A stretch of 59,217 bases of DNA, taken from assembly GCA_043797205.1 (NCBI GenBank), contig JAZDQB010000014.1:1-59217 (forward strand), given 5' to 3'. Positions 32,404 through 44,872 of this stretch are shown one piece after another; within the stretch, counting starts at the first letter, position 1; the number at the start of each line of letters is the position of its first letter. Made by a program: the position numbers and the translations under genes. This DNA is from Candidatus Woesearchaeota archaeon (GTDB taxonomy: Archaea; Nanobdellota; Nanobdellia; Woesearchaeales; GW2011-AR9). The notes beneath the pieces are model-generated. The model saw nothing but the letters and a program-made list of their open reading frames with translations, did no database searches and had not been told where the DNA came from.

Positions 32404-32964
32404 TTAATTCATTAACATCAGTTTCCGGCGAGTGTATTTTATTTTCCATTGCTCCAGCACTTCCTGCATCTCTTTATCTTTCTCCAAGGGGATAAGAAAA
32501 GCACTATTTGAAACAAATTCACCGCTAAACTTCTTTACCAGCCCTTCTGAACCATTCCTTCCCCTTAATAAGTAAACAAAACGGACTTTCTTGCTGGGCG
32601 CCTCTGGGGATAAATCATAAGCATAAAGTAATTTTGGCATCAGCCCATAAGCTTCAGACAGCTTTTTTCCAGTAAGGATGCTTGCACCTTCGAAGAAGAT
32701 GGTTTTTGAGAGGGAATGGACTTCCTGAAAAAAGTTTTCAGCATTTAGAAAATTAATATGGTATTTTTCTCCTAACAACGATTCAACTTCTCTAACTAAT
32801 TTTAAGTTTGGCTTGTCTTTAAATATCAGGCAGATATCAATATCATGTGGGGCAAGTTTTCCTTTTACTGCCGATCCAAATATCAAAATATCTATTAGTT
32901 CCTCTTTCCATCTATTTTTCCAATTATTCTTTAACTGAGAAAATTTTTTTGAGTCTTTCCACAC
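32404..32964 (-). CDS. nucleotidyltransferase domain protein (186 aa)
   Basis: ILIFGSAVKGKLAPHDIDICLIF carries the GS..D-x-D signature. Confidence 0.7.
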   Translation of the reverse strand: MWKDSKKFSQLKNNWKNRWKEELIDILIFGSAVKGKLAPHDIDICLIFKDKPNLKLVREVESLLGEKYHINFLNAENFFQEVHSLSKTIFFEGASILTGKKLSEAYGLMPKLLYAYDLSPEAPSKKVRFVYLLRGRNGSEGLVKKFSGEFVSNSAFLIPLEKDKEMQEVLEQWKIKYTRRKLMLMN

Positions 32965-33268
32965 TTTCTTTTAACCTCTGAACCTGTTCTTTATGGATAC
33001 GCAGGTTGTAACTGTCGGTATATTCTCTAAACAAAGGAGAAATCAGGCTGTAAGCTTCTTTATAATGAACTTCTAAAAACAAGAACCTTTCCTTGTGGTT
33101 CTTTGGAAGCAATCCTTGTAATTTATATATTTGATAATCACAAAGAATAGCAATGGCCTTGAAGTAAGATGAAATGGCTGGATTATACCGTTGTTCCTGA
33201 TAATCCCTTTCTGCACTAGCCAAAAATTCTTTGAAATTGTTCAGCAAGTCTTCGGTTATCGCCGTCAT
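32924..33268 (-). CDS. HEPN-like helical protein partnered with the downstream NTase
   Basis: The AERDYQEQRYNPAISSYFKAIAILCDY pattern fits HEPN. It overlaps the NTase gene by 41 nt. Confidence 0.5.
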   Translation of the reverse strand: MTAITEDLLNNFKEFLASAERDYQEQRYNPAISSYFKAIAILCDYQIYKLQGLLPKNHKERFLFLEVHYKEAYSLISPLFREYTDSYNLRIHKEQVQRLKESVERLKKIFSVKE

Positions 33269-33357
33269 TTAATGCGTTAACAGTTAGCAACTATTTAAGG
33301 CTTTTGGTTAATTCGTTAAAGGAGCGTAATCATGGGGAGATTTAAGGAAACAAAAAA

Positions 33358-33602
33358 TAAAAGCGGGCCTACTGGTCAATAAGGGCAGACTGCCCTTATC
33401 AACCCTCAGGCTTACGCAATTTAACGGGCCTACAGGGACTTTCTCAAATCATGAAATAAATCATAACTTGCTTCGAACCCTGATTTAACGGTATCTTGCC
33501 AGCACCTGCTCGTCTCATCGCTAGTACTGGACCGAAGCCGTTTGTTCTTTTTGGCTACTGCCCAATTGCTTAAGCAGTGTATCCATTATACTATAGGCCC
33601 GC
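33358..33602 (-). ncRNA. candidate structured ncRNA of ~245 nt, identity unresolved
   Basis: The termini pair over 9 bp (GCGGGCCTA at 33602-33594 on the minus strand with TAGGCCCGC at 33371-33363). There are several internal hairpins, including the 9-bp stem ATAAGGGCA/TGCCCTTAT and a cUUCGg loop. A T-run follows directly on the minus strand and a TATA-like box lies ~24 nt upstream. Confidence 0.55.
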
Positions 33603-33620
33603 ACACTTCTAAAACTTTAA

Positions 33621-33631
33621 GCTATTTTTAA
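33621..33631 (-). promoter_or_regulatory. TATA-like box (TTAAAAATAGC on the minus strand) upstream of the ncRNA candidate
   Basis: It is centred ~24 nt upstream of the first paired G at 33602. Confidence 0.4.
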
Positions 33632-33846
33632 TCCTTTCGTTAGTTATCTCTGAAAAAACAAAGCGAGGATAAATCATTACCTTTTACCTCTTTCACCACT
33701 TCTCTTAGTATCTATATATATTTTATAGTGTTTATGGAAAAGGTATATATAAGATTAATATTATCTAAGTAGTGTGCGCGGAAATTAATCTGAATTGTGG
33801 AAATGGGTGTTGGCGCAGAGAGGGTGTTGAATCTTATTTTAGGTAG

Positions 33847-34173
33847 ATGGGGGTGAATACTATGGGTAGGTCAGAACATCGCTGTATGGAATGTGATGAA
33901 GGGATTAGTAATCCTATTTGTTCGGAATGCCTGGCCCAGAGAATGCGAATGGTAATCGGAGAAGAGAATCGCCGTTTAGCTCGAGCGATTAAAGGGATAG
34001 CTACTTCTGGAGCAACAGTTTGTCTTTTCTGCGGAAAAGGAGTAGGGGTTTGTGCCCATTGTTTCAGCCAAGATGTGCTGGAATATTTAGAAGAGAAAAA
34101 TTTTCCTTTAGCCCAAATGTTCAAAAGCCAGTTTGATTTCGATTTAAGACATAGAAGTATCGATTTTGATTAA
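33847..34173 (+). CDS. Cys-rich zinc-ribbon-like protein, hypothetical
   Basis: Two C-x2-C pairs are present, CMECDEG..CSEC and CLFCGKG..CAHC. The GC content looks higher than the surroundings. Confidence 0.4.
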   Translation: MGVNTMGRSEHRCMECDEGISNPICSECLAQRMRMVIGEENRRLARAIKGIATSGATVCLFCGKGVGVCAHCFSQDVLEYLEEKNFPLAQMFKSQFDFDLRHRSIDFD

Positions 34174-34247: not shown

Positions 34248-35396
34248 ATGTCCCTTTTTAAAATTCAGCATAAAGAAAAGCATACTAAAGCGCGCACCGG
34301 AATCATCTCTACTCCGCATGGAAAGATTCATACGCCCGCCTTTATTCCGGTAGCTACGCAAGCTACTATCAAGGCGTTAACTCCACAACAAATCAACGAG
34401 ATTGGTTTTGATTCAGTGTTGTGTAACACTTATCACCTTTTTCTTCGTCCCGGAGCAGATTTAGTAAAAAAGATGGGGGGAGTAGCTAAATTCATGTCTT
34501 GGTATAAGCCCACCTTTACCGACTCAGGGGGATTTCAAGTCTTCTCTCTGAAAGATAAGCTCTGTGAAGTGGATAACGAAGGAGTTACCTTCAAGTCTTT
34601 TATCGACCAATCTCAACATCGTTTCACTCCGGAGATTAGTATGCGGGTGCAAAAAAAGCTTGGGGCAGACTTAGTTTTTACTTTTGACCAATGTTTAGAT
34701 ATCAATGCTGATTATGAAACGACGAAAAGGTCTTTGGAAAGAACCCATACTTGGGCTGCACGCAGTTTAAAAGAATTTAAAAAATTAAACAAGGACAAGA
34801 CTCAAGCACTTTATGGTATCGTGCAGGGAGGAAGATTTACTAAACTACGAGAAGAATCGGCTAAATTTATTGCTCAATTGGATTTTGATGCTATTGGAAT
34901 AGGAAGTATTTTTGGAGATCCGAAAGAAGAGAGTAAGAAATTAGTGCAGCATGCTTTGAAATTCTTACCTTATAATAAAACTAAACATCTGTTAGGGATT
35001 GGAGCGGTGGAAGATATTTTTACTTATGTAGAATTAGGAATGGATACTTTCGATTGTGTGCTTCCGACCAGATTAGCGCGAGTGGGATATATCTATCTTC
35101 GTCCAGAATCCGGCGGAAGGCACGAAAATAAGTTTCGGTATCGAATTACTAATCTTCGGTATGTTTTGGACAAATCACCTTTAGACAAAAATTGTGGGTG
35201 TTATGTATGTAAGAATTTTACTCGTAGCTATATTCGCTATTTATTCAAAGCGGATGAACTGCTAGCTTATACTTTAGCTACATATCATAATTTGTATTTC
35301 TTCTCTAAGCTGATGGAAGAGATTAGAGGAGCGATTGATGCGGATAAATTCTTGCAGTTGAAGAAGAAGTGGATGAAATCTTTTCAAAAGGTTTAA
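34248..35396 (+). CDS. tgt: tRNA-guanine transglycosylase, catalytic-domain-only form (382 aa)
   Basis: Motifs FTDSGGFQVFSL, LYGIVQGG and the zinc site CGCYVCKNFTRSYIRYL..YHN are present. There is no C-terminal PUA extension. Confidence 0.85.
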   Translation: MSLFKIQHKEKHTKARTGIISTPHGKIHTPAFIPVATQATIKALTPQQINEIGFDSVLCNTYHLFLRPGADLVKKMGGVAKFMSWYKPTFTDSGGFQVFSLKDKLCEVDNEGVTFKSFIDQSQHRFTPEISMRVQKKLGADLVFTFDQCLDINADYETTKRSLERTHTWAARSLKEFKKLNKDKTQALYGIVQGGRFTKLREESAKFIAQLDFDAIGIGSIFGDPKEESKKLVQHALKFLPYNKTKHLLGIGAVEDIFTYVELGMDTFDCVLPTRLARVGYIYLRPESGGRHENKFRYRITNLRYVLDKSPLDKNCGCYVCKNFTRSYIRYLFKADELLAYTLATYHNLYFFSKLMEEIRGAIDADKFLQLKKKWMKSFQKV

Positions 35397-44586: not shown

Positions 44587-44587
44587 T

Positions 44588-44769
44588 GCCACGGTGGCAC
44601 AATCTGGTAATGCGCAGACACTTCAACGTGGCGTTGGATTGCTAGGTTTTGCGTCTGTTCGATAATGCATAAGCTGAAAATGAGAACAGAATCCGCGCAG
44701 ATATCCTGTCCCTTTGGGATTCCCGGTTCAAATGCAAACAAAAATTGCTTGAAAGTCCGGGCCGTGGCG
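44588..44769 (+). tRNA. tRNA gene with multiple introns (182 nt); isotype unresolved, and Lys(UUU) is possible only under a 32/33 intron model
   Basis: Acceptor is GCCACGG/CCGTGGC with discriminator G, the D-arm is GCAC-AATCTGGTA-ATGC, and the T-stem is CCCGG/CCGGG. A 23-nt intron (44733-44755) sits in the T-loop within a clean helix-bulge-helix-bulge motif. About 85 further extra nucleotides lie between the D-arm and the T-arm. Confidence 0.7.
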
Positions 44770-44872
44770 TATTTTTCTTTTATAGATTTAGTCTATTAAC
44801 TTTAGTGTACTTGGTAACGAAAACTTTCTTATAAGTAAATTATTTAAAGAGCAGAATAATCTTCCATCTAAG

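Follow-up and report, generated by a model that had tools for sequence, protein, structure and literature searches.

A tRNA-Arg(UCG) gene very probably interrupted by three introns, with a palindromic module at its 3' side, in a Woesearchaeota archaeon

Archaeal tRNA genes with three introns have been described in the Thermoproteales, in which tRNA-Pro(UGG) of Pyrobaculum islandicum, for instance, is interrupted at positions 25/26, 37/38 and 56/57 (PMC4090602). Relaxed bulge-helix-bulge motifs and introns at sites 20/21 and 59/60 have been published as well (PMC4090602). A three-intron tRNA gene is a known kind of gene, and the tRNA-Arg(UCG) locus described in this study is a further example. 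As in the Thermoproteales genes (PMC4090602), one canonical intron is combined with two non-canonical ones, the splice sites fall in motifs of strict or relaxed form, and the gene is missed by standard finders. Nevertheless, the host is a DPANN archaeon (Woesearchaeota-type) and not a crenarchaeote, a different tRNA is interrupted at a different combination of sites, and a K-loop is conserved in the anticodon intron. The locus also resembles the intron-rich tRNA genes of ARMAN-2 (PMC3239211), which likewise reside in a small genome of the DPANN type and contain non-canonical introns needing an endonuclease tolerant of relaxed motifs.

The window, by which we mean the whole stretch of DNA analysed here (59,217 nt), belongs to an assembly of 995 kb in total, distributed over 38 contigs. 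The locus lies in a gap without any ORF of at least 40 aa (33269-33846), bounded by ORFs at 32924-33268 on the minus strand and at 33847-34173 on the plus strand. The original prediction had placed in this gap a structured-RNA gene on the minus strand, flanked by a promoter and a terminator, and all of the features it listed were indeed found there. We are highly confident that positions 33600-33425 of the minus strand constitute a tRNA-Arg(UCG) gene, which is split into four exons by three introns of the bulge-helix-bulge type. When the G-rich start of the RNA at 33602 on the minus strand is taken as RNA position 1, the gene and its flanks are laid out as follows.

33624..33631, minus strand: A/T-rich TATA-like box, putative promoter, 24-31 nt 5' of the mature tRNA start (from the sequence and its relatives)
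33601-33602, minus strand (RNA 1-2): 2-nt leader
33581..33600, minus strand (RNA 3-22): exon 1, with the acceptor 5' strand GGGCCUA, U8, A9, the D-stem 5' strand and the D-loop to 20a
33549..33580, minus strand (RNA 23-54): intron 1, 32 nt, in the D-loop at about 20a/21, a 9-bp hairpin with a GCAA loop
33532..33548, minus strand (RNA 55-71): exon 2, with A21, the D-stem 3' strand, A26, the anticodon-stem 5' strand and loop positions 32-37
33535-33533, minus strand: anticodon UCG, within exon 2
33493..33531, minus strand (RNA 72-110): intron 2, 39 nt, at the canonical site 37/38, an 8-bp hairpin capped by a K-loop motif
33472..33492, minus strand (RNA 111-131): exon 3, with A38, the anticodon-stem 3' strand, a 4-nt variable loop, the T-stem 5' strand and T-loop positions 54-59
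33439..33471, minus strand (RNA 132-164): intron 3, 33 nt, in the T-loop at 59/60, its 3' end pairing with the T-loop UUCG
33425..33438, minus strand (RNA 165-178): exon 4, with U60, the T-stem 3' strand, the acceptor 3' strand UAGGCCC and the discriminator G73
33364..33424, minus strand: 3' insertion, 61 nt in total, made up of 52 nt (33424-33373) and a 9-nt duplicate of the tRNA end (33372-33364)
33352..33362, minus strand: T-run, candidate archaeal transcription terminator (from the sequence and its relatives)

The spacing of the A/T-rich box is constant in six relatives, where the box occupies -32/-31 to -24 relative to the mature 5' end, and we infer from its sequence and position that it may act as the promoter. 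In the side-by-side comparison of orthologs, the T-run directly adjoins the tRNA 3' end in six relatives, and judging from the sequence it is likely an archaeal transcription terminator. The 245-nt stretch has a minimum free energy (MFE) of -104.1 kcal/mol, as opposed to -66.8 +/- 4.5 kcal/mol in dinucleotide shuffles (z = -8.3; 0 of 200 shuffles were as good), and each of the helices listed in the original prediction is present in the MFE fold. The original prediction was right in its general claim of a structured-RNA gene with a putative promoter and terminator on its flanks, and the checks it suggested were the appropriate ones. The locus is single-copy in the assembly, and its flanks are roughly syntenic with those of the relatives. 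The upstream neighbour (34248-35396, plus strand) is a tRNA-guanine transglycosylase gene (Pfam TGT, 420 bits), of which the product is probably the archaeosine enzyme. On the downstream side (32404-33268, minus strand), we found a nucleotidyltransferase gene followed by a HEPN match at 17 bits, which is under the Pfam cut-off; the two look like a toxin-antitoxin pair.

The Rfam search on the window and the locus recovered no named family. No match reached the gathering score, and those obtained at E<=10, including APC IRES, miRNA and Gram-positive sRNA families, were rejected as chance-level. The strong thermodynamic fold and the lack of an Rfam match speak for the three identities proposed earlier, namely SRP RNA or RNase P RNA in reduced form, or else a small structured RNA of a new class. 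We reject the first two of these proposals and find the third scarcely credible, as (i) the genome carries a canonical SRP RNA (C13:56021-56289, 118.7 bits) and a canonical RNase P RNA (C9:33262-33599, 116.7 bits) at other loci, while the locus itself matched neither RF01857 nor RF00373, and (ii) the conserved segments all map to tRNA exons, the segments between them being dispensable in orthologs. The motifs that had been likened to those RNAs fall on parts of the tRNA-Arg(UCG) gene. GAGAAAGUCCC, which had been compared to CR-I of RNase P RNA, is the 3' splice junction of the T-loop intron, and the GAGCA helix regarded as reminiscent of SRP helix 8 is the K-loop hairpin within the anticodon intron. 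The ACUGC/GCAGU hairpin and the cUUCGg loop are both present as described; the former is the body of the D-loop intron, and the latter is the anticodon loop with the anticodon UCG.

The DNA search of 60 relatives retrieved homologs in the own genus and beyond, among them orthologs with a covarying cloverleaf. When aligned, these orthologs consist of conserved blocks separated by segments that vary in length or are missing. For instance, the T-arm of relative G004 is uninterrupted at the site where the window has 33 extra nt, and relative G003 has no 32-nt hairpin segment behind the D-loop. Common to all of the relatives compared is the loop CUUCGG...A on a covarying stem. Across seven orthologs, pairing in the cloverleaf and intron helices amounts to 95.3%, against 31-47% in slid controls, and eight pairs have changed on both sides. 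The covariance model built from this seven-ortholog alignment found a match in 104 of the 114 family genomes. The 30 best matches all bear the anticodon UCG, and their cloverleaf is 99.4% paired, the slid controls reaching 30-48%. Compensatory changes were detected in 12 of the 21 cloverleaf pairs of these 30 matches, a level that 0 of 500 shuffles attained; pair 7-66, for example, is A-U in 15 orthologs and G-C in the other 15.

The Rfam tRNA model (RF00005, threshold 29) gave 56.8, 47.5 and 42.3 bits for orthologs with one or two introns, and no match for the window's own three-intron gene, as is expected with three introns. In the Rfam alignment of the less-interrupted orthologs, the acceptor stem begins at GGGCCUA, which is the same start as in our gene model. 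The 9-bp helix that the original prediction drew between the two ends of the RNA therefore stands in part: seven of its pairs form the acceptor stem, whereas the outer two, between leader and trailer, are fortuitous, and their leader positions vary freely in the 30 orthologs. We also rejected a tRNA-Sec-like fold with a 9-bp acceptor, on account of this free variation at the outer two 5' positions, of the anticodon UCG and of the 7-bp stem recognised by Rfam in the orthologs.

When the four exons were joined in silico, ARAGORN called a tRNA-Arg(tcg) of 73 nt with a 7/4/5/5-bp cloverleaf. The conserved tRNA nucleotides are all intact after splicing (U8, A14, the D-loop GG at G18-G19, A21, U33, G53-U54-U55-C56, A58 and C61), and the T-arm reads GUUCGAAUC. 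The 7-nt anticodon loop, CUUCGGA, is invariant among the orthologs. Of 30 orthologs spliced by alignment column, 22 were called as tRNA by ARAGORN; the other eight were missed where the choice of columns had cut a loop or left intron residues. Without any splicing, the first 183 nt of the RNA alone fold into the acceptor, anticodon and T stems together with the intron hairpins. For the D-stem, pairings with UAGU or UAUGG were considered and rejected in favour of the covarying G10-C25, U11-A24, N12-N23 and U13.G22.

Each of the three introns is missing from some of the orthologs. Intron 1 occurs in 19 of the 30 and is precisely absent in 11, its length elsewhere being 13-39 nt. Introns 2 and 3 are each present in 23 orthologs and precisely absent in seven, and intron 3 measures 15-96 nt elsewhere; all three introns are found together in eight of the 30. 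In the central helix of intron 1, UGG/CCA, three pairs are formed next to an A.A mismatch. A C-G pair closes the clean 3-nt bulge on the 5' side, whereas the 3' splice site of this intron is relaxed, with an internal loop in place of a clean bulge (the intron boundary may shift 1 nt later owing to an A|A ambiguity). Three of the four pairs are formed in the central helix of intron 2, where the C.C mismatch is conserved. At intron 3, UUCG of the T-loop is paired with a CGAA close to the end of the intron on its 3' side, and a 3-nt bulge flanks the helix at either end; this central helix is canonical in the orthologs, and has three of four pairs in the own genome, one pair being G.A.

From these motifs, the following course of expression may be proposed. 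The TATA-like box would drive a precursor of ~250 nt carrying three protein-spliced introns, each of which, together with the adjoining exon nucleotides, would adopt a bulge-helix-bulge motif of strict or relaxed form. These motifs would then be cut by the archaeal splicing endonuclease, and ligation of the four exons by RtcB would yield a cloverleaf of the canonical type, 73 nt in length. Transcription and splicing of the locus are read here from the DNA, and the part assigned to the endonuclease and RtcB rests on the splice-site motifs and on the presence of both enzyme genes. The gene for the splicing endonuclease EndA (100 bits), which lies on C12, encodes N-terminal and catalytic Pfam domains, and the RtcB ligase gene was detected at 567 bits. 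The relaxed 3' site of intron 1 implies that an endonuclease of broad specificity is needed. Unlike the broad-specificity three-unit endonuclease of ARMAN (PMC3239211), EndA of the own genome is a single-unit enzyme of 237 aa, whose best relative in the PDB is the Nanoarchaeum catalytic subunit (3iey_A).

An interrupted gene of this kind might be a decaying tRNA pseudogene, disabled by insertions, by a D-stem mismatch and by the duplication at its 3' end. In the D-stem, A.A stands in place of the third pair, the 3' insertion is unique to the own genome, and the standard finders fail on the locus: ARAGORN called no tRNA on the raw window, and it still missed the gene when run with the intron search on the whole genome. 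Nevertheless, the mismatch is common to three species (the own genome and two close relatives), which suggests that it is tolerated, and the failure of the standard tRNA and RNA-family finders is explained by the three introns together with the small repeat inserted 3'. Decay is, moreover, difficult to reconcile with matches in nearly all of the family genomes, the best of which, all of them UCG, keep near-perfect pairing and compensatory changes, with orthologs that carry all three introns, with the retained promoter box and terminator, or with conserved tRNA nucleotides that are each intact after splicing. We consequently judge a pseudogene very improbable and retain the reading as a tRNA-Arg(UCG) gene with three introns. 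As the assembly is 68% complete, a second, uninterrupted tRNA-Arg(UCG) gene could exist elsewhere in the genome.

The anticodon intron carries a feature of its own. At the apex of its hairpin (33522-33507, minus strand) lies a K-loop motif, in which a GC/GC stem is followed by a 3-nt bulge, by tandem G.A/A.G pairs and by a 3-nt loop. A kink-turn is defined as a helix followed by a 3-nt bulge and then by tandem G.A and A.G pairs (PMC5061560), and the sequence pattern in intron 2 fits this definition. The K-loop is kept in 12 of the 23 orthologs that bear intron 2, in several genera, and four pairs of the stem beneath it show compensatory changes among the seven aligned orthologs. No such motif was seen in eight other intron-bearing tRNA genes of the own genome, and we rejected the K-loop as a general feature of the introns of this genome. 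Its retention across genera, while the T-loop intron varies freely, is a hint that the RNA of intron 2 may have a role, such as L7Ae-assisted folding or the production of a stable excised RNA; that the K-loop binds L7Ae is put forward purely as a hypothesis. In Euryarchaeota, the tRNA-Trp intron contains a box C/D guide. The intron described here resembles it in that a conserved motif of the kink-turn type, predicted as a likely L7Ae site, lies inside a canonical tRNA intron. There is, however, just one K-loop in the 39-nt intron, and guide sequences would not fit into it, so that it does not itself qualify as a box C/D guide. Our literature search on K-turns in tRNA introns found nothing specific.

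On the 3' side, the tRNA gene and the T-run are separated by the 61-nt segment, which ends in a second copy of the 9-nt tRNA end, the first copy being at 33433-33425. This segment is unique within the assembly and is found in none of the six close orthologs compared. It carries a palindromic hairpin module with a 14-bp stem (33405-33375) around a core at 33399-33379; the 9-bp AUAAGGGCA stem noted in the original prediction is present, as part of this repeat module 3' of the tRNA. We propose that this 61-nt segment would be a later insertion plus the 9-nt duplicate, located outside the mature tRNA, and that it would be removed as a 3' trailer. In the MFE structure, the acceptor 5' strand is paired with the downstream duplicate, but the alternative in which the first copy is used is less stable by no more than 2 kcal/mol. 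According to this folding model, the competing duplicate could disturb the folding of the full transcript; the first copy of the 3' strand is presumably the one used in the mature tRNA.

Alternatively, the 61-nt segment may itself be a fourth intron, excised by the endonuclease through cuts after RNA positions 178 and 239, with the ancestral trailer restored as a result. The GGCC in both 9-nt copies can pair to give a central helix of 4 bp, flanked at either end by a 3-nt bulge, the same hairpin module sits in genuine introns of relatives, and the own genome has no T-run between the first copy and the insertion. The helices flanking this putative motif are, however, just 1-2 bp long, and the fold competes with the acceptor stem. 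Relatives of the same arrangement have a T-run after the first copy, or a decayed second copy, and the module is antisense at this locus, whereas it is sense in the true introns. In addition, both cuts would fall after the discriminator, so that the mature tRNA is independent of them. We therefore consider a four-intron gene improbable and continue with three introns and a 3' insertion.

The module occurs well beyond this locus. Its 21-nt palindrome and C-rich tail, which are nearly invariant, were found in 29 of the 114 family genomes (17 of 58 genera) at one to four copies each, the module-bearing relatives including L009-L031 and L063-L091; a control with the reversed pattern gave no matches in the 114 genomes. 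Two contexts can be distinguished. In class I, the module is in the sense orientation and begins 0-1 nt past the 5' splice site, in introns of the T-loop or the anticodon loop of several different tRNAs, and is followed by a second, covarying hairpin. In class II, to which the tRNA-Arg(UCG) locus belongs, it is antisense and follows a complete tRNA gene on the 3' side, enclosed by direct repeats of the tRNA end. These repeats range from 9 to ~75 nt, and some first copies have a T-run of their own, while some second copies have decayed. The variable length of the repeats argues against a simple target duplication by a transposase. We also considered an integrated element beside the tRNA, which was rejected because the tRNA end has no additional copy in the window, synteny with the relatives is roughly preserved in the flanks and no integrase is among the neighbours.

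A comparable case is the 2010 work as far as it is covered in PMC4090602, in which near-identical intron sequence was found in non-orthologous tRNAs and at both 37/38 and 59/60, as with the hairpin module. Unlike that case, to the extent described there, the shared unit in the Woesearchaeota is a short palindromic module, and it is also found in inverted form outside the tRNA, where the two copies of a duplicated 3' end enclose it. The review PMC4090602 makes no mention of the latter arrangement.

It is tempting to speculate, albeit as a tentative and rather doubtful proposal, that the 52-nt insertion is the footprint of a small mobile module, consisting of the 21-nt palindrome and a short C-rich tail and acting at the DNA level, which targets tRNA genes of Woesearchaeota. 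In one orientation, the module would land in the T-loop or the anticodon loop and would be tolerated there as a bulge-helix-bulge intron; in the other, it would land at the tRNA 3' end and duplicate 9-75 nt of it. According to a 2026 preprint on Asgard tRNA introns, the route by which introns arrive is still open. A palindromic module common to introns of different tRNAs and to insertions at tRNA 3' ends bears on how archaeal tRNA introns are gained, and if such a mobile module were real, it would be a concrete vehicle for their arrival and spread, a route that has long been sought.

In G031, the sites C2:45440-45468 and C9:20935-20963 (L018 and L009) share one composite of a tRNA-end fragment, a spacer, the hairpin module and another tRNA-end fragment; one of them follows an entire tRNA and the other has nothing but fragments around it, an arrangement that points to movement or duplication of the composite as a unit. 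Separately, a stretch of 26-30 nt in the 79-nt T-loop intron of the G002 ortholog (L004:1022-1060) is 96-100% identical to two other sites, one in G003, within an insertion on the 3' side of another tRNA (L028:1436-1461), and one in the own genome (G000) at C21:16381-16410. This stretch is a second small repeat common to introns and tRNA flanks.

Interrupted tRNA genes are not confined to the tRNA-Arg(UCG) locus. With the intron search, ARAGORN called only 10 tRNA genes in the 995 kb, a number from which we expect that most tRNA genes of this genome are hidden in the same manner. A regular-expression scan of the genome yielded 14 candidates, about a dozen of which are convincing T-arms interrupted at 59/60 by introns ending in NGAAAG (e.g., C10:18511, C13:32973, C17:19522, C22:1623, C23:26158, C28:62231, C33:228 and C35:19256). 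Among the 59/60 introns genome-wide, TTCG is accompanied by CGAAAG and TTCA by TGAAAG; in other words, the central helix covaries with T-loop nucleotide 57. Loci such as tRNA-Arg(UCG) are the missing tRNAs of a 1-Mb assembly with ~10 standard calls, and the translational capacity of DPANN genomes will be underestimated unless multi-intron tRNA genes are resolved by comparison.

Two other tRNA genes were noticed in the window. At 44587-44775 on the plus strand, a second hidden tRNA gene has the acceptor stem GCCACGG/CCGUGGC, a 23-nt T-loop intron at 59/60 and at least one more intervening sequence; after removal of the T-loop intron, ARAGORN called it as tRNA-Leu(cag) with a 66-nt intron, an assignment that we regard as putative. 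The tRNA-Asn(GUU) gene at 1480-1599 on the plus strand, with a canonical intron of 45-46 nt, is the sole tRNA of the window detected by Rfam (57 bits), and ARAGORN detects it only with the intron search on.
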